A stretch of 64,000 nucleotides of DNA from Candidatus Latescibacterota bacterium. GTDB taxonomy: Bacteria; Latescibacterota; UBA2968; UBA8231. The notes below the pieces were generated by a model. The model was not told the DNA's origin. It did not search any database and saw only the letters and a program-made list of their open reading frames with translations. The stretch lies in the NCBI GenBank assembly GCA_965243025.1, contig CBDETY010000003.1:4736001-4800000 (forward strand), written 5' to 3'. Positions 9,224 through 37,825 of this stretch are shown piece after piece. Made by a program: the position numbers and the translations under genes. How positions within the stretch are numbered: the stretch's first letter is position 1; each line of letters opens with the position of its first letter.

Positions 9224-9299
9224 GGGGCTGTAGCTCAGTTGGGAGAGCGCCTGAATGGCATTCAGGAGGTCAGGGGTTCGATTCCCCTCAGCTCCACCA
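9224..9299 (+). tRNA. tRNA-Ala (anticodon GGC)
   Basis: 76-nt cloverleaf GGGGCTG...CAGCTCC-A-CCA with G3:U70; anticodon arm CCTGA-ATGGCAT-TCAGG; T-loop GGTTCGATTCC. Confidence 0.99.
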
Positions 9300-31290: not shown

Positions 31291-32301
31291 TCAGTCATCC
31301 GCCTCCGAAAGGGCGCGACCCCGGTCCGCCGCCCGCCGGCTGCGCTCACTCCAGCCCCTGGCCGCGTACTGCCTGGACAGCTCCGCCCAGACTTCCACCC
31401 TCTCCGGCATGCGGACCGTCAGGACCTCCAGCCTCGGTATCGCCTCCTCGCTGTTTCCCAGTTCCGCGTACGCCATCGCCAACTGGTAGAACGCCTCCCT
31501 GTCCGCCGGATCGATGGCGAGGGCGGATTCGAGGGCCTCGATTGCCTGGAACGGCTCCCCGAGAGCGCGCCGGACCCGGCCAAGGCCGAGGAGCGACGAC
31601 GAGTCCGCGGCATCGATCAGCGTCAGCTGCCGGTACAGCTCTCCAGCCTCTTCCAGCTCGCCGAGCTGCTCGCAAAGGGCCGCGAGCTTGCGCGTTCCCC
31701 CGTCGTGAAAGGGATCCTGTTCGCGAAGCTTCCGGAAGGCTTCCAGAGCGTCGCTGTGGCGCCCCATGGCGATGTACACGCTGCCGATGTTGAGGAGCGC
31801 ATCCTCGTCCGCCGGATTGCTTTCCAGGAGATGGCCGTAGGCCCCCGCGGCCGCGGCGAGACTATCGAGACTGTAGTAGACGTATGCGAGGTTTCTCCGG
31901 GCGTCCCTCGATTCCGGATCGATGATGGCGGCGTTGCGGAAAGCGACCAGCCCACCGGGGTAGTCGGGCGGGTGGTGGCGCACCAGGCCGATGCCGCGGT
32001 TGTATTCCTCGTTGAAATACCGGACCCTCAACCTGGTGATGGTGACGTCGTACTCGGAGCTCAACTCGAGCGAACGCGCAAAGGCCGCCGCCATGGCCTC
32101 GAAGTCGCCCTGGGCGGCGTGCACCCGGCCCAGCCAGAAGTGGGCTTCGGGGTTCCCGGGAGACTGCTGTATCCCCAGCTCCAGGTACTGGCGGGCCTTG
32201 TCGTAATCCTTCTCTTCTTCGTAGTAGGCCTTGCCCGCTATGATGGCGCTCTGGCAGCCGCACAGGGCTGCCGCTACGCAGGCCGCCCCGAGAACCCGCA
32301 T
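31291..32301 (-). CDS. Tetratricopeptide-repeat lipoprotein
   Basis: ALCG|C lipobox; repeated TPR units (EAHFWLG, ARRNLAY, ALLNIG, AFYQLA). Confidence 0.85.
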   Translation of the reverse strand: MRVLGAACVAAALCGCQSAIIAGKAYYEEEKDYDKARQYLELGIQQSPGNPEAHFWLGRVHAAQGDFEAMAAAFARSLELSSEYDVTITRLRVRYFNEEYNRGIGLVRHHPPDYPGGLVAFRNAAIIDPESRDARRNLAYVYYSLDSLAAAAGAYGHLLESNPADEDALLNIGSVYIAMGRHSDALEAFRKLREQDPFHDGGTRKLAALCEQLGELEEAGELYRQLTLIDAADSSSLLGLGRVRRALGEPFQAIEALESALAIDPADREAFYQLAMAYAELGNSEEAIPRLEVLTVRMPERVEVWAELSRQYAARGWSERSRRAADRGRALSEADD

Positions 32302-33347
32302 CAGGGGGTGTAGCCCCCGACGATCCTGGCGACCGCGGCGGCGAACCGCTCGACGTCGTCCCTGGTGGTGTCGAAGGAAGCCATCCAGCGCACCACGCAG
32401 GCGGGACCGCTGAGGTTGAAGGCAACGAAATTGAACTCCTTCTGGAGCTCGGCGACGCAGGGGGTGGGGATTTCGGCGAAGACGCCGTTGCTTTCGGTGG
32501 GATACAGGATCTTCAGGTTCGGCACGCCGCTGACTTTTTCCGCCAGCAGCCGGGCCATGCGGTTGGCGTGCCCGGCGGTGCGGCGCCACAAGCCGCCGCG
32601 CAGCACCGCTTCGAACTGGGCGCTGATGAACCGCATCTTCGAAGCCAGCTGCAGACCCTGTTTGCGCACGTAGCCGAAGTCCCGCGCCAGCCCGGGATCG
32701 AAGAACAGCACCGCCTCCCCGATCATCATGCCGTTCTTGGTGCCCCCGAAGCTGACGATGTCGACCCCGGCGTCCCGGGTAACGGCGCGCAGCGACAGGC
32801 CGAGGGCGGCGGCGGCGTTGGCGAGTCGCGCCCCGTCGAGATGCAGCAGCATCCCGTTTGCGTGGACGAAATCGGCCAGCGCCCGCGTCTCCGCAACAGT
32901 ATAGACCGTGCCCCACTCCGTGGCCTGCGTGATCGAAAGGAGGCGCGGCTGGCTGCTGTGTCCGGGAATTTCCTCGCGGGTCAGCGGCTCCACGGCGTCG
33001 ACCGTCAGCTTGCCGTCGACGGTAGGGGCGGGGTAAACCCGGCAGCCGATGAAGCGCTCGACGGCGCCGCTTTCCGAGACGTGGATATGCGAGCAGTCGC
33101 CGCAAATCAGCGCCTGGTACGGCGTGCAGACCCCGGCGGCGCTGACGACGTTGGCGGCGGTTCCGTTGAATACCAGGAACACCTCCGTCTCCTCCCCGAA
33201 GTGGTCGCGAAAGGCCTGGACCGCCCTCTCCGTGTACGGATCCTCACCGTACCCCACCTCGTGGCCGGCGTTGGCGTCGATCATCGCCTGCAGCACCTCC
33301 GGGTGAATGCCGGCGTTGTTGTCGCTGACGAAGCTGCGTTTTTCCAA
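32301..33347 (-). CDS. ltaE: Low-specificity L-threonine aldolase
   Basis: SDN, GYGED, NGTAAN, TQATEWGTVY, HLDGARLANA, GGTKNG (PLP Lys), SKMRF; TTG start with GGAGGGG SD. Confidence 0.9.
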   Translation of the reverse strand: MEKRSFVSDNNAGIHPEVLQAMIDANAGHEVGYGEDPYTERAVQAFRDHFGEETEVFLVFNGTAANVVSAAGVCTPYQALICGDCSHIHVSESGAVERFIGCRVYPAPTVDGKLTVDAVEPLTREEIPGHSSQPRLLSITQATEWGTVYTVAETRALADFVHANGMLLHLDGARLANAAAALGLSLRAVTRDAGVDIVSFGGTKNGMMIGEAVLFFDPGLARDFGYVRKQGLQLASKMRFISAQFEAVLRGGLWRRTAGHANRMARLLAEKVSGVPNLKILYPTESNGVFAEIPTPCVAELQKEFNFVAFNLSGPACVVRWMASFDTTRDDVERFAAAVARIVGGYTP

Positions 33348-33620
33348 CAATTCCCCTCCGTGTCTGCTTTCGGGACATTCAACCCCCAATCGGGCCGCCC
33401 CTGAGAGGGGATCAAAGATAAACCTCGGAAGACAGCGGCAGAAACGAGGCTTTCAGCCGGCCTCCTCTCCGGCGTGGGCCGGGTCCGCAAACGCGCTTCG
33501 TCCGCGGCGAAGCCCGTTTTTTGAAGCCCACCCGGCGTTGGCGGCCGCGGACGCCGGGGCAGACCCCGGCCCGGATGACCCTGAATCCCGGTCGGGATCC
33601 CGGGAACCGGACTCGGCGAG

Positions 33621-33656
33621 GCAATTGTTGCAGCCGATTCCGTGCAATTGTTGCAG
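33621..33656. promoter_or_regulatory. Tandem palindromic upstream activator sites (candidate enhancer-binding protein sites)
   Basis: GCAATTGTTGCAG occurs twice (33621-33633 and 33644-33656, 23 bp apart), core (T)GCAA-N3-TTGCA, 90-120 bp upstream of a sigma54 promoter. Confidence 0.65.
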
Positions 33657-33740
33657 GAATTGTCCCCCCGCACCGGCGCCCTGGAAGCCTGAACAACCCA
33701 TCTGCTTTAATCCACAGGGAGTTACAACCGGCGCCGGCAC

Positions 33741-33758
33741 CTGGCACATATCTTGCAT
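33741..33758 (+). promoter_or_regulatory. sigma54 (RpoN) -24/-12 promoter
   Basis: CTGGCACATATCTTGCAT matches YTGGCAC-N5-TTGCW; predicted +1 at about 33768. Confidence 0.85.
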
Positions 33759-33802
33759 GCTGTCTGGCGCAACTGTTCACCATGCAAACACTCGAGGAAA
33801 GC

Positions 33803-33838
33803 ATGGCCCAGCTGTCGACAACCGAAGGAACGAGCTGA
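33803..33838 (+). CDS. Possible 11-aa leader peptide MAQLSTTEGTS
   Basis: GAGGAAAG SD-like sequence before ATG 33803; alternative in-frame ATG at 33782. Confidence 0.3.
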   Translation: MAQLSTTEGTS

Positions 33839-33974
33839 GAGAAACGCTGCCGATCGCACTCAGCCCAATCTCCTTCGGAATACCTGAAGGTGTGTGCGAG
33901 TGCGACCCGGCGGAGCCGACGATCTGTAGATGATCGGACCGGCCCTCGCAAGGGGAACCCGATCCGACGGACGA

Positions 33975-34006
33975 GCCGCAGACACCGCGAGTGCCTGCGG
34001 TTTTTT
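33975..34006 (+). terminator. Intrinsic terminator / possible attenuator
   Basis: GCCGCAGACAC-CGCGA-GTGCCTGCGGT followed by a T run. Confidence 0.75.
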
Positions 34007-34092
34007 CGTGCCTGTCCCGGAAGGCAAAGGAGGCGGGAGTGATACTGATATCCGAATCGAAAGCAACCTCAAAACCGAAAGGAGGCATGCCC

Positions 34093-34176
34093 ATGCGACG
34101 CGAGCTGTTGAACCAGGGCCTGATGTACGGACTTGTCAGCCTCTTCGTGTTCATCGTCGCCCCCCTCGTAACCTGA
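34093..34176 (+). CDS. 27-aa hydrophobic micropeptide MRRELLNQGLMYGLVSLFVFIVAPLVT
   Basis: AAAGGAGG SD 7 nt before the ATG; a single TM-like stretch; a second in-frame AAAGGAGG+GTG start at 34039. Confidence 0.6.
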   Translation: MRRELLNQGLMYGLVSLFVFIVAPLVT

Positions 34177-34291
34177 GCGGCGCGACGACGGTCGAGGCAT
34201 CTGGTTCGTGAAGGGCGAATCGAAACATGCCGTGGAGACGAATGCGATTCGTCTCCGTCCACCCCGACCATGCGACGATGAAAGGATTGCG

Positions 34292-34408
34292 ATGATTTAC
34301 AGATGGCGAACCTGGAGGGACTCGACCGCTGCAGTTCAGCGCCTGTTCTGGTGGGTGCTTGCCCTTTCCCTGACGCTTGCCTTGCAGGGCGGCCCGAAGG
34401 CGGGCTAG
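34292..34408 (+). CDS. 38-aa micropeptide MIYRWRTWRDSTAAVQRLFWWVLALSLTLALQGGPKAG
   Basis: GAAAGGA SD 5 nt before the ATG; basic N-terminus, hydrophobic core, short polar tail; terminator downstream. Confidence 0.55.
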   Translation: MIYRWRTWRDSTAAVQRLFWWVLALSLTLALQGGPKAG

Positions 34409-34461
34409 CTTCTTCTCCGGACTGCCGCCCCGGGCTGCATCCGCGAAACCCTTCGAAACCG

Positions 34462-34502
34462 AAAGGGCCGGCTCCCGTTCACGGGGCCGGCCCTTTGTTC
34501 TT
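34462..34502 (+). terminator. Strong intrinsic terminator closing the micropeptide unit
   Basis: AAAGGGCCGGCTCCCG-TTCA-CGGGGCCGGCCCTTTGTTCTT. Confidence 0.85.
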
Positions 34503-34708
34503 ACCAAACCTCTTCGTGCCTGCGGCGCCGGTCGAATCCCCGCAGGGGTACGCGCCGCGCCCGAAAAAGGAACCGAAGCTGAAGAACCTCCTCCCCACGG
34601 CCGGCAATGCTGGCGATTGACCTTTCACCGGACCTGCGGGCACCTTTCACGGGGAGAACGAGAACCCCCCAGACCAGGGCCTGCGGCGAACCACCGGCAC
34701 CCGATCCC

Positions 34709-35788
34709 ATGTCACGATCCCAGCAAGTGAAGCCGGGTACAGCCACCGGCGAGCGGCTCGAGAAGCTGCTCGACATCCTGCCCTCTTTCGCGCTGCTTGC
34801 GGGTTTGCGGCTCGACCTGTTCGCCATGCTTGAAAGCGGTCCGGCCACCGCCTCCGAGCTGGCTGAACGGCTCGGCGCCGACCGCCGCCGCCTCGACCAG
34901 CTGCTGTACGCCCTGGCCGCGGTCGACCTCCTCACTGCCGAAAAACCGGCCGCGCCAGGAAAACCTGCACCCGGTGAGCTCCGCTTCCGCAACAGCCTGG
35001 AAGCCGGCCGTTACCTCGTTCCGGGGAAAGGGGAGTACCTCGCCGGCCACCAGGAGCTGCTCGCCATCCTCTGGAACGCCGCCCTGAAAACCGCGGATTC
35101 GATCCTGGAAGGCCGTCCGCTGGCAGAGAAGGACTTCGCCGCCATGCCCGGGGAGGAGCTGGCTGCCTTCCTCGGAGGACTGCATTCCATGGCCCTCCAG
35201 CGGGGACGGGAGCTGGCGGGCGGCGACTGGCTCGGCGGCTGCCGCCGCGTCGCCGATATCGGCAGCGGCTCCGGGGGGGTCCTCATCGCCCTTGCCGGGG
35301 AGCTTCCCGAGCTCCGCGCCGTGGCGGTGGAGCTGCCCCGCGTCGCCGAGATGACCAGGGAATTCGTCTCCAGATCCACGGTGGCGGAGCGGATCGAAGT
35401 CGCCGCAGCCGACCTCACCGCCGACGAGGTGGTGATGTCCGAAACCGACCGCTCCCGCCTGGCCCCCGGCTCCTTCGACGCGGTGCTGATGGTCTCCTTC
35501 CTGCAGGTGTTGAGCCCGGGGCAGGCGCGCCGGGTCGTCGGCCGCGCCGCCGGGCTGCTGCGTCCGGGAGGCGCCCTCCACGTCATCGGCGCCGGCATCC
35601 TCGACGACGGCCGCGCGACCCCCGCCAAAGGGGCGCTGTGCAACCTCGCCTTCCTCAACATCTACGGGGAAGGGCGCTCGTACACCGGGGGAGAGCATCG
35701 CGACTGGATGCGCCAGGCCGGTCTGGCCCCTCCGGAACTGCGGGAGCTGGAAGACGGCACCCGGGTCATCAGCGCTCGCAAGCCCTGA
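34709..35788 (+). CDS. O-methyltransferase (Methyltransf_2 with dimerisation wHTH)
   Basis: GLRLDLFAML, DIGSGSG, AVELP, ILDD, LAFLNIY.EGRSYT. Confidence 0.85.
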   Translation: MSRSQQVKPGTATGERLEKLLDILPSFALLAGLRLDLFAMLESGPATASELAERLGADRRRLDQLLYALAAVDLLTAEKPAAPGKPAPGELRFRNSLEAGRYLVPGKGEYLAGHQELLAILWNAALKTADSILEGRPLAEKDFAAMPGEELAAFLGGLHSMALQRGRELAGGDWLGGCRRVADIGSGSGGVLIALAGELPELRAVAVELPRVAEMTREFVSRSTVAERIEVAAADLTADEVVMSETDRSRLAPGSFDAVLMVSFLQVLSPGQARRVVGRAAGLLRPGGALHVIGAGILDDGRATPAKGALCNLAFLNIYGEGRSYTGGEHRDWMRQAGLAPPELRELEDGTRVISARKP

Positions 35789-35857: not shown

Positions 35858-37825
35858 GTGAAGGAAGCCCTCGCCCAGGTCAGCGAAAATCTCGAGGAGA
35901 TCCTCTCCAGGTACGACGAAGCCGCGCAGGAGCTTCTGCGCGTCGCCCGCGCCGACGGGCACTTCGCCGGCTGGAACCCCGACGATGTCGCCTGGCCCTG
36001 CAGTCCGGGGCCGGGCCAGGTGCCAGGACCCGATGCCCTCGCCAGGCGCGCCGCCCTGATTGCCGAGATCTACGACGGCACGCCGTCCCGCCGCGACAGC
36101 CGCCTCGGGGAGGCGTACGAACGCTACAGCGCGAGGCTGCCGGCCTACCACGAGAGCAACCGCCTCTTCGCCCGGATCCAGCGCCAGTTCCGCGAGCGGG
36201 GCGCCGGAGACGAGCGCGACTTCCTGCAGCTCTACCAGACCGTCTACCTCGAAGCCCTGCGCCGCGAAGACCCGGTTCCCCTCGACGAGGGGGAGGCGGC
36301 GCTCGTCGAGTTCCGCGTCGCCCGCGCGCCCCTGGCGCTGGCGACCTCGGTCGCCGAGAAAGTGCACCGGGACGCCGACCCGGACGACCCCCGCTGGACG
36401 CAGGAATACTCCTGCACCGACGCGGCCGGGAACCCGCGGACCGCGACGCTGCGCGACCATCTCACCGGCATCGCCGAGGCCGTGGTCGACATGCTCGCCG
36501 CCGGCGAGCACCTCGCGGTCCGCTTCAACACCTTCAGCAATTTCATCTGGTTCGGGATCTCGATATGGAAGGCGGTGACCGACCTCGACCTGCTGGTCTC
36601 GCGGCTGCGGGGCAAGGTCCGCCGCAGCTGGCTCGAGAAGCTCGAGTTGCACGTGCGCCTGGCGCAGGGGATGCTGCTGGAGTTCCTCCAGGCCCACCTC
36701 GAGGACCCGGCCCAGATCCGGCCCCGCGAATACTGGTACGGCCAGCAGTACAGCTATCTCACGCGGGACATGATCGACCTCGTGACCGCCCTGATCCCCA
36801 AGGCCAACGCCCTGCGCCGGCGCGCCCGCGGCGGAGATGAAATCCCGCCGGTGGAAGTGCCTCTGCTTTTCCTCGACGACAAGACCGGACGGTTCCTCGA
36901 GTACCCCGGCGTCGGAACGACGGGGACGATTTCCGTATGGAAACGGAGGGCGCGGCTGTTGGCCTGGCTGCGGCTCTTCCGCCAGGCACGCAAGGTAAAA
37001 TTGAGCCTCTGGCGCCCCGAGGTCCCCGAGCAGGTGCGCATCGAGAAGGCTTGGAAGTGCATGCTCGACATGGGCTCGAGGGTGCTCGACCTGTTCGGCA
37101 TCGAGCTCGAGGTGACGGTCGATCCGCTGTTCGAGGAGATGGCGCGTGAGCTCCGCCTGGGAGAGCCGGGGGCGCGCAAGGTCGCCTTCCTGCCGACCCA
37201 TCTCAGCCTCCTCGACCACCCGGTGATGTACGGCGTCCTGCAATCGCCGCAGCTGTGCCGGGCCATGGGATGGGAAGGACCGCGGCCGTGCACCATCCTG
37301 TCGCGGGAGCGGCTCCTCGACGCCACGGCTTTCAGGATCGGAGGCCGGGAGTTCTCGCTGATCGGCATCACCCCGGACCGCATCGACACCTTGAGCGAAG
37401 AAGTGGACGGCTACGTCATCCTGCGCCGCAGCAAGGACACCGGCAATCCGACGCAGCGGTTCGCCGAGTTCCTGGAGCAGCGGCCGGGGGTGGTTTACGG
37501 CGCCGGAACGGTGGCTGCGTACGCGCTGCAGATCCTGCCGATGCAGCACGCCCTGTTCGCCTACCTGCCACAGGACACGGTGATCGTGCCGCTCGCCTTT
37601 CGCGGCATTCACCAGGTCTGGCCCAAATGCCCTCGGGGCAACCTCGACATCAACCCGGGACGCGTAGAGGTCGTGGTGTCGCCGCCCATGCTCGGGGAAA
37701 CGACGCTGCTGCCGCGGAAGCGGGCGTTGCGGACGCAGCTGGAGCCGGCGACGCTGTTTCAGGCGGTGCACATAGCGACGCTGCTGAACCCGGAGCCGGC
37801 GGAGCCCTCCGCGAGCGCCACCTGA
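35858..37825 (+). CDS. Unknown N-terminal domain fused to a PlsC/LPLAT-like acyltransferase domain
   Basis: FLPTHLSLLD (HX4D), IVPLAFRG..QVWPK and PGRVEVVV in the C-terminal third. Confidence 0.65.
   Translation: MKEALAQVSENLEEILSRYDEAAQELLRVARADGHFAGWNPDDVAWPCSPGPGQVPGPDALARRAALIAEIYDGTPSRRDSRLGEAYERYSARLPAYHESNRLFARIQRQFRERGAGDERDFLQLYQTVYLEALRREDPVPLDEGEAALVEFRVARAPLALATSVAEKVHRDADPDDPRWTQEYSCTDAAGNPRTATLRDHLTGIAEAVVDMLAAGEHLAVRFNTFSNFIWFGISIWKAVTDLDLLVSRLRGKVRRSWLEKLELHVRLAQGMLLEFLQAHLEDPAQIRPREYWYGQQYSYLTRDMIDLVTALIPKANALRRRARGGDEIPPVEVPLLFLDDKTGRFLEYPGVGTTGTISVWKRRARLLAWLRLFRQARKVKLSLWRPEVPEQVRIEKAWKCMLDMGSRVLDLFGIELEVTVDPLFEEMARELRLGEPGARKVAFLPTHLSLLDHPVMYGVLQSPQLCRAMGWEGPRPCTILSRERLLDATAFRIGGREFSLIGITPDRIDTLSEEVDGYVILRRSKDTGNPTQRFAEFLEQRPGVVYGAGTVAAYALQILPMQHALFAYLPQDTVIVPLAFRGIHQVWPKCPRGNLDINPGRVEVVVSPPMLGETTLLPRKRALRTQLEPATLFQAVHIATLLNPEPAEPSASAT

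Follow-up and report, generated by a model that had tools for sequence, protein, structure and literature searches.

We analysed a 64,000-nucleotide stretch from the genome of a Candidatus Latescibacterota bacterium (the window; G000:C3:4736001-4800000, where G000 denotes this 6.8-Mb genome of 65% G+C), and in particular a unit with a sigma-54 promoter, a structured leader RNA and two small open reading frames (ORF1 and ORF2), which sits in a 1.3-kb gap reaching from a threonine-aldolase-like gene to an O-methyltransferase gene. The sequencing runs that contain DNA of G000 are mostly sponge-related. An initial annotation, made from the sequence alone, had assigned to this gap two copies of GCAATTGTTGCAG, a -24/-12 box, a leader of ~240 nucleotides (nt) with a terminator, two ORFs each led by a Shine-Dalgarno (SD) sequence and a closing terminator, and all of these were indeed found in place. 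The features, in window positions, are as follows.

32301-33389, - strand: beta-eliminating lyase/threonine-aldolase-like gene (ltaE), the upstream flank, assigned by profile match
33621-33633, + strand: upstream activating sequence (UAS) site 1, GCAATTGTTGCAG, centred about -141 from the predicted start
33643-33656, + strand: UAS site 2, TGCAATTGTTGCAG (the second GCAATTGTTGCAG copy, at 33644-33656, preceded by T), a palindrome TGCAA-N3-TTGCA centred about -118
33713-33725, + strand: block CACAGGGAGTTAC between enhancer and promoter, invariant in the three-species alignment
33741-33758, + strand: sigma-54 -24/-12 promoter CTGGCACATATCTTGCAT (TGGCAC-N5-TTGCA), with GG at 33743-44 and GC at 33755-56
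33768-34007, + strand: structured non-coding leader, about 240 nt to the first terminator
33975-34007, + strand: intrinsic terminator of the leader (hairpin 33975-34001 and U6), with one A-C mismatch in the stem
34008-34092, + strand: spacer with the SD sequence AAAGGAGG (34077-34084), without a sigma-70-like promoter, 71-76% identical to the sister species
34093-34176, + strand: ORF1, a predicted single-pass membrane micropeptide of 27 amino acids (aa), MRRELLNQGLMYGLVSLFVFIVAPLVT, with the SD sequence AAAGGAGG seven nt upstream
34234-34256, + strand: intercistronic hairpin GGAGACGAAU/AUUCGUCUCC, -14.8 kcal/mol, 3/200 shuffles as stable
34292-34408, + strand: ORF2, a predicted 38-aa membrane micropeptide, MIYRWRTWRDSTAAVQRLFWWVLALSLTLALQGGPKAG, with the SD sequence AAAGGA
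34462-34502, + strand: closing intrinsic terminator (hairpin 34462-34496, then UUGUUCUU), -31 kcal/mol, z -5.4
from about 34607/34709, + strand: O-methyltransferase gene, the downstream flank, assigned by profile match

For comparison we used the two sister species G001 and G002, which with G000 form the three species of genus g1, and further genera of the same family (g14, g18, g3, g16 and g5); L-numbers denote the locus rows examined. Identities of G000 to G001 and G002, respectively, were 93/92% in the ltaE coding sequence (CDS), 39/43% (unalignable) in the ltaE-to-UAS intergenic region, 81/88% in the UAS pair, 67/68% in the UAS-promoter spacer, 78/83% in the -24/-12 element, 87/88% in the 5' part and 78/77% in the 3' part of the leader, 76/71% in the terminator-ORF1 spacer, 96/88% in ORF1, 74/77% in the ORF1-ORF2 spacer, 83/84% in ORF2 and 69/82% in the methyltransferase CDS. 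Since UAS through ORF2 retain 67-96% identity against ~40% in the adjoining intergenic region, the whole stretch that begins with UAS site 1 and ends with the stop codon of ORF2 is under constraint, and the block is, judged by this alignment, a real conserved unit.

The promoter has GG at -24 and GC at -12 with canonical spacing, and from the geometry of CTGGCACATATCTTGCAT transcription is expected to start near 33768. As the initial annotation presupposed, rpoN is encoded in G000 (Sigma54_DBD, 202.7 bits), together with 20 bacterial enhancer-binding protein (bEBP) genes that give strong Sigma54_activat matches. A scan for sigma-70-like promoters, covering one promoter type, returned no site on either strand from 33200 to 34900. 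The strict motif TGGCAY-N5-TTGCW occurs 21 times in the 6.8 Mb, against about 8 expected from a base-composition estimate, and a strict match alone is not rare in G000. The two GCAATTGTTGCAG copies are spaced by 23 bp; site 1, which fits the motif GCAAWTNNTGCA, is unchanged in all three species of the genus, and site 2 reads TGCAATAGCTGCA and TGCAATTGCTGCA in the sister species. In agreement with their assignment as a UAS, the sites are dyad-symmetric, lie ~80-150 bp from the promoter and recur at other promoters. When the composite pattern TGCAANNNTTGCA-N80-110-TGGCAC was searched in the family, 40 occurrences in 31/76 genomes were obtained versus 4 for a reversed control. As for the invariant block CACAGGGAGTTAC, our guess is a site for a DNA-bending protein; similar CAG...TTAC strings, by eye, also precede the other promoters that share the enhancer motif (below).

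ORF1 belongs to an undescribed micropeptide family. A six-frame search detected it in 38 of the 132 genomes of the class, all within one family, namely in 37 of the 75 family genomes besides G000 and in none of the 56 genomes of the other three families. By genus, it is present in 2/2 genomes of g1, 26/31 of g14 (mostly as two paralogues), 6/10 of g18, 1/2 of g3, 1/8 of g16 and 1/1 of g5 (weak), and there is one copy per genome in the genus of G000. The ORF1 profile matched 41 clusters at E<=0.001, and 14 at E<=1e-10, among 1.84 billion representative proteins. The match ends no more than five residues from the C-terminus in all 41, and 20 of them are 29-33 aa long, which argues for a stand-alone protein of ~30 aa; the longer calls look like over-extended starts. 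Relatives of the peptide occur in public records under the label Candidatus Latescibacterota, apart from three metagenome-assembled genomes (MAGs) labelled Gemmatimonadota/Gemmatimonadetes. The consensus is M(R/K)RE(I/L)xNQ(G/A)L(M/V)Y(G/A)L(V/I)SLFVF..P(L/V), whose polar N-terminus, MRRExxNQxLxY, is strongly conserved across genera and the 41 metagenomic clusters. R3, E4, Y12 and P24 are invariant yet encoded by two to three synonymous codons among 19 distinct nucleotide versions, and N7 and Q8 follow the same synonymous pattern. Regarding the start codon, an alternative ATG at 34087 follows the SD sequence after one base; because this is too near, and because relatives in other genera begin with MRRE/MKRE, the 34093 start is preferred. 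The corresponding codon in G002 is ATC, so that the start is not fully settled. An in-frame extension 5' of ORF1 (GTG near 34039) was discarded, as on reading the alignment it is not kept in G001 or G002.

ORF2 has a conserved SD sequence and the core LxRxLWW(V/M)(L/F)AL, and in its alignment the second codon positions change least. It lies downstream of ORF1 in eight aligned loci and in the metagenome contig L092; the loci come from G000, G001, G002, four g18 genomes, the MAG L060 and L092. Both ORFs have what is expected of small membrane proteins, an SD-led start, a hydrophobic helix and protein-level purifying selection, with the evidence for ORF2 being weaker (8-9 sequences). A structure-based pairing prediction for ORF1 with ORF2 gave a score of 0.03. 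The presence of ORF2 is tightly linked to that of the promoter. Of the 49 locus rows, 9 have the motif TGGCAC-N5-TTGC(A/G) at a distance of 220-393 nt upstream of ORF1; the same nine have ORF2, and neither the motif nor ORF2 is present in the remaining 40. As L046 and L061 are one contig, the nine rows correspond to eight distinct places, and L092 adds a ninth. ORF2 was thus found only adjoining ORF1 and only with a sigma-54 promoter upstream (nine distinct loci in two genera), and the promoter is retained at 9/9 of these, including G001 (as TTGCG), G002 and six loci of the second genus or of metagenomes. The view that the gap holds a complete transcription unit, sigma-54- and enhancer-dependent in appearance and encoding two membrane micropeptides, is therefore upheld by conservation from UAS through ORF2, and its promoter and small ORFs are kept not only in the sister species but also in a second genus.

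These results bear on the simplest alternative, that the motifs are chance matches in ordinary intergenic DNA and no dedicated unit exists. Such a view can draw on the eight or so strict sigma-54 matches that composition alone would give (21 seen), and on the RNA-library contigs described below, which say nothing on the expression of the unit. We nevertheless regard it as extremely improbable, because every part is conserved next to a spacer of ~40% identity, the promoter persists at all nine ORF1+ORF2 loci, the composite UAS-promoter pattern exceeds its control by 40 to 4, and there is codon-level evidence for both ORFs.

No part of the unit could be placed in a named family of Rfam, Pfam, NCBIfam, PADLOC or the PDB, as the initial annotation had also stated from recognition. 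ORF1 and ORF2 hit no family at E<=1 in Pfam-A, NCBIfam and PADLOC; among PDB chains the best E was 0.25 for the ORF1 profile, with none for ORF2; and in the ESM Atlas the best score, 0.79, was to an unnamed 29-aa cluster and below the level that counts. A look-up of ORF1-family clusters found 8/8, of which none carries a name.

We then considered the leader. The segment 33768-34007 folds with a minimum free energy of -92.4 kcal/mol (z -2.93; 0/200 shuffles as stable), and its terminator hairpin with -14.5 kcal/mol (0/200 shuffles as stable). One- and two-nt indels at several places between species break every frame; the leader is therefore non-coding, and its reading as a coding region was ruled out. 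Both the leader and the closing terminators consist of a GC-rich hairpin with a U-run, the former being about half as stable as the latter. The leader terminator is retained in G001 and G002, where the A-C mismatch is repaired to A-U, and comparable terminators are present in the leaders of G126 and L092, in which UAS, sigma-54 promoter, a leader of ~340 nt and a terminator all precede ORF1. The closing terminator is kept with its U-run in G001 and is unalignable in G002; the stem of the intercistronic hairpin is kept, by eye, with G-U changes in both. Given the mismatch, the halved stability and the lack of a promoter-like site before ORF1, both ORFs are probably expressed by read-through of the leader terminator. 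As a separate observation, the leaders of L046 (G126) and L092 contain a possible SD-led short ORF (23-29 aa) sharing ...PVIDE... in the same frame (by eye).

Rfam 15, which includes Qrr, GlmY/GlmZ, CrcZ and riboswitches, gave no match in 33300-34750 at the gathering score, and none in five related loci; at E up to 10, only weak matches appeared, scoring at most 21 bits where the cut-offs are 40-123, and the better of them lie on the closing-terminator hairpin. Short DNA matches in another family (L005-L007) contained neither motif, that of L005 lying in coding-looking sequence, and were treated as chance. The possibility that the leader acts as a CsrA sponge was dismissed, since GGA motifs are not enriched (7 versus 5.1 +/- 1.9 in shuffles).

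It could be argued from the leader that the ~240-nt terminated RNA, a sigma-54-dependent trans-acting small RNA (sRNA), is the main product of a dual-function unit, the micropeptides being secondary. Sigma-54-dependent sRNAs are a known kind, and the leader has a discrete stable fold that ends in an intrinsic terminator, is non-coding, and in its 5' half is 86-88% identical within the genus, near the CDS level. On the other hand, a homologue outside the genus was not found in 41 relatives searched by DNA, nor was its 22-mer matched in metagenome contigs; within G000, the leader, spacers and tail have neither paralogues nor long complementarity elsewhere beyond chance matches of 15-20 nt; GGA is not enriched; and no promoter was found from the terminator to ORF1. 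Furthermore, 4 of the 9 loci lack the terminator while all keep the promoter and both ORFs, which indicates that the peptides are the conserved cargo. We thus consider an sRNA as main product unlikely. Of the sRNA-plus-micropeptide module put forward in the initial annotation, the micropeptides stand; the free sRNA is conjectural, as the leader sequence is conserved only within the genus and the leader hairpin has no U-tract at those four loci.

A further proposal, a type I toxin-antitoxin-like locus in which one or two hydrophobic peptide toxins are restrained by the structured 5' untranslated region and an antisense RNA, was suggested by the sizes and hydrophobicity of the peptides, which fit, together with the long structured 5' region and inducible promoter. 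We judge it very unlikely. The opposite strand from 33200 to 34900 showed no promoter-like site in the scan of one promoter type, PADLOC had no match, the genus has one copy per genome, the locus is syntenic across two genera, and the polar N-terminus of ORF1 is strongly conserved across genera and in the 41 clusters. In addition, the ORF1 paralogues of g14 stand behind sigma-70-like promoters together with ssb or by dnaN, a context that suggests routine expression. In g14 loci of type 1, ORF1 follows TTGACT-N17-TATCTT and is accompanied by a different 47-aa hydrophobic ORF, a 69-aa ORF and ssb; in g14 type 2, g3 and g16 loci, it lies between dnaN on its upstream side and the gene for a DUF5916 protein on the other.

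Several observations on these paralogous loci were made in passing. At L013, L018 and L029 (ORF1 at 1501; +110 to +490), the paralogue heads an operon continuing with the 47-aa ORF (MNPIFAFHALRE...), the 69-aa ORF, which has no Pfam match, and ssb. At the dnaN-linked loci, a conserved ORF of ~50 aa (MKMKSVDRFEMRGTPRRAAGGNLYGGCAILAAGMQLEKTQFAPRGGGSIPPD in G004; L004 1740-1898, - strand; also L035, L038, L049 and L050) lies between dnaN and the ORF1 paralogue with its own SD sequence, sigma-70-like promoter and terminator, and the region has no Rfam match. What first looked like a terminated RNA 5' of ORF1 there is better read as this SD-led ORF (~52 aa), and offers no parallel to the G000 leader. 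At L048 (G006:C720), a weak ORF1-like peptide, MKREVKDIGTMYALVSLFVCIAMPLAAALA (E 0.004), directly precedes a gene for an extracytoplasmic-function (ECF)-type sigma factor.

The enhancer motif leads beyond the unit. TGCAA-N3-TTGCA is found at five places in G000, and three of these lie 84-110 bp upstream of a strict sigma-54 match, in line with the genome-wide association that the initial annotation had proposed to look for. Besides the unit, these promoters, each combining TGCAA-N3-TTGCA with a sigma-54 match, are locus B, on the - strand (C3:167919..167796), and locus C (C3:6269379..6269496). For the looser GCAAWTNNTGCA, composition predicts 8.3 sites and 19 are present; 7 of the 19 are at the three regulon loci, some of them downstream of promoters. 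Of the composite places found in the family, 30 were fetched; 19 have a TTGCN -12 element, and the first downstream ORF of these 19 is EIIA-like in nine and sigma-factor-like in five, as judged by eye from the N-termini. The initial transcribed bases also appear alike by eye, namely TTGCATGCTGTCTGGCG in the unit (33759-33775), TTGCATGGCTGTATGGCG at locus C and TTGCATTGTCTCGGGCG at g18 loci, which hints at a conserved initial transcribed sequence among the regulon promoters.

The coding sequence of a protein with the architecture Response_reg-Sigma54_activat-HTH_8 stops 13 nt before locus B, and ahead of it lies that of a HisKA/HATPase kinase in which no sensor domain is recognisable; downstream of locus B lie a PTS_EIIA_2 (PtsN-like) gene and then a LOG-family gene. 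The whole arrangement (G000:C3:166108-170216; L040 5109-9217, - strand) thus runs kinase, AtoC/NtrC-like bEBP, TGCAATTCTTGCA site with sigma-54 promoter, EIIA and LOG-family gene, with a second site, GCAATTAATGCA, downstream of the promoter. This layout also exists in G001 and four g18 genomes, and in g18 the site next to the activator gene reads TGCAGGAATTGCAC or differs slightly from it. This bEBP and its kinase (G000:C3:167.9-170.2 kb) are our candidate regulators of the unit, 4.6 Mb away; the best NCBIfam match of the bEBP is AtoC, at 433 bits below the 714-bit cut-off. The expectation that the activator would be encoded elsewhere thus has a candidate beside the same enhancer site, one of the 20 strong bEBP genes of the genome. 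Among the matches listed for the exact 13-mer GCAGGAATTGCAC in g18 (64 further matches are not shown), G129 has it 87 nt upstream of ORF1 and also at the EIIA locus, G124 about 75 nt ahead of ORF1 and once elsewhere, and G131 in the micropeptide leader. At these g18 loci the sites are downstream of the promoter; G126 and L092 have TGCA(A/G)-N3-TTGCA about 100-135 bp upstream, as in G000.

Locus C (G000:C3:6269379-6270584; L041) contains an RpoS-like gene of 285 aa behind a TGCAAATGTTGCA site and sigma-54 promoter, and two more sites within its 230-nt leader. The product is a four-region sigma-70 family protein nearest to RpoS models (238 bits, under the 378.7-bit cut-off), and by its layout locus C would belong to a bEBP -> sigma-54 -> sigma cascade like Rrp2-RpoN-RpoS.

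Taken together, sequence and comparison establish which parts the unit has and that these are conserved, that both ORFs are coding, that the leader is non-coding and that the enhancer motif is shared; the start site, the binding activator, attenuation and the action of the peptides are what we infer from them. We favour, as reasonably probable, a single enhancer-dependent operon in which an activator works through sigma-54 and an attenuated leader on two membrane micropeptides. In this model, a signal passing through the sensor-less kinase would phosphorylate the AtoC/NtrC-like activator, which would open the sigma-54 complex after binding the pair of TGCAA-N3-TTGCA-type sites (centres about -141 and -118). 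Sigma-54 RNA polymerase would then start from the promoter at 33742-33757, the transcript beginning near 33768 and carrying a structured non-coding 5' leader of roughly 320 nt ahead of ORF1. The leader terminator (3' end about 34007) would serve as a leaky or regulated attenuator, so that terminated transcripts would be the ~240-nt RNA, and read-through transcripts would carry ORF1 and ORF2 and stop near 34500. Both micropeptides would insert in the membrane; most likely each is a small subunit, accessory or regulatory, of some membrane protein or pathway, and there may be a link to the O-methyltransferase that comes next. The unit would be one of three outputs of the regulon, the others being the PtsN-like EIIA gene and the RpoS-like sigma factor.

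Several points weigh against this operon model. The activator is assigned by adjacency and motif sharing, as one of 20 strong bEBP genes. At L044, L045, L047 and L060 (4/9 orthologous loci), the GC hairpin before the SD sequence has no U-tract and the enhancer-like sites follow the promoter, so that neither the attenuator nor the upstream position of the UAS is universal. The -12 element of G001 is TTGCG, the leader has no homologue among the 41 relatives searched by DNA, and its three close sequences allow no meaningful covariation. Contigs from two RNA libraries cover 33594-33703, 33868-34031, 34248-34458 and 34160-34379 at a depth of 3-10; as one piece lies upstream of the promoter, they may represent DNA carry-over. 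Contigs from two other runs were likewise fragmentary. Finally, the conserved linkage to the O-methyltransferase is the sole hint to a partner of the peptides. A more far-reaching version, in which the unit has a dual output (a ~240-nt sigma-54 riboregulator and co-evolving micropeptides made by read-through) within a kinase -> bEBP -> sigma-54 -> RpoS-like-sigma cascade of an uncultured symbiont phylum, and the ORF1 family supplies a core membrane complex with a small subunit throughout the lineage, having been rewired from genus to genus between control by sigma-70 and by sigma-54, seems to us unlikely.

Around the unit, the gene order ltaE-like gene, unit, O-methyltransferase, 655-aa protein is common to G000 and g18. 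In g18 the O-methyltransferase starts only about 20 nt 3' of ORF2, suggesting one operon there; in G000 a strong terminator and about 300 nt separate the two. The 655-aa ORF lies downstream of the O-methyltransferase (window 35858-37825, + strand); it is 58-59% identical and syntenic in g18, has no Pfam or NCBIfam match, and contains an H-x4-D string (HLSLLD) that by eye resembles acyltransferases. Elsewhere in the window, a tRNA gene (9224-9296, + strand) is the sole Rfam match. In runs X1 and X5, a single contig of 11.7 kb and high depth also matches positions 33571-33597 and 34253-34271, probably because of short repeats in common or by chance, the contig coming from some other abundant organism.

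The literature searched contained no published account of the unit. What is new is the pair of micropeptide families, the way in which the parts are combined and, for an uncultured phylum, the regulon, the types of parts being familiar; the unit touches no long-standing open question. The two families escape standard annotation, in a phylum without cultured members, and G000 provides a defined enhancer motif with a three-promoter regulon. Since the same 27-30-aa peptide gene has sigma-54 promoters in two genera and sigma-70-like ones in another, it is a natural case of promoter-class rewiring. Moreover, with the enhancer motif and the activator encoded next to it, the regulon can be tested in a heterologous host, although the organism itself is unculturable.

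Among known systems, the phage-shock (Psp) regulon of E. coli, in which PspF and sigma-54 drive pspABCDE and pspG, resembles the unit in that genes for small inner-membrane proteins are turned on by sigma-54 together with an enhancer-binding ATPase. At 27 and 38 aa, the peptides of the unit are much smaller and show no sequence relation, its candidate activator has a receiver domain and a partner kinase, and a long terminated leader precedes the genes. With the sigma-54-dependent sRNAs Qrr1-4, GlmY and CrcZ, the unit has in common a -24/-12 promoter, a UAS placed about 100-150 bp upstream of it, and a structured RNA of short length that ends in an intrinsic terminator. Unlike them, it matches no Rfam family at the gathering score, and its genus-specific leader is directly followed by two translated-looking ORFs without their own promoter. 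As in the dual-function RNAs SgrS/SgrT and RNAIII/delta-haemolysin, one transcript could yield a structured RNA and small peptides, but the peptide genes of the unit are downstream of the terminator and not inside the sRNA. The small membrane-protein regulators and subunits MgrB, MgtS, AcrZ, KdpF and CydX are likewise single-pass peptides of ~30 aa with a short polar end and signal-specific expression; there is no sequence relation to them, the Pfam, NCBIfam and PDB searches being empty or insignificant.

For the AtoSC-atoDAEB system, with AtoC as the best match of our candidate activator, the verified E. coli AtoC sites GCTATGCAGAAATTTGCACA and GCTATGCAGAAAATTGCGCA listed in Table 5 of PMC3118216 contain TGCAG...TTGCA half-sites similar to those at the unit. 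The half-site spacer in that table is N4, in contrast to N3 in the unit, the activator scores below the equivalog cut-off and the target genes are unrelated; the similarity is a resemblance, not evidence of membership. Finally, in Borrelia, according to PMC2940757 and PMC11109971, the response-regulator bEBP Rrp2 and sigma-54 drive an RpoS-like sigma factor. The likeness is to locus C, the other regulon member, and not to the unit itself; compared with that cascade, locus C falls below the RpoS cut-off and G000 has clear upstream enhancer sites.

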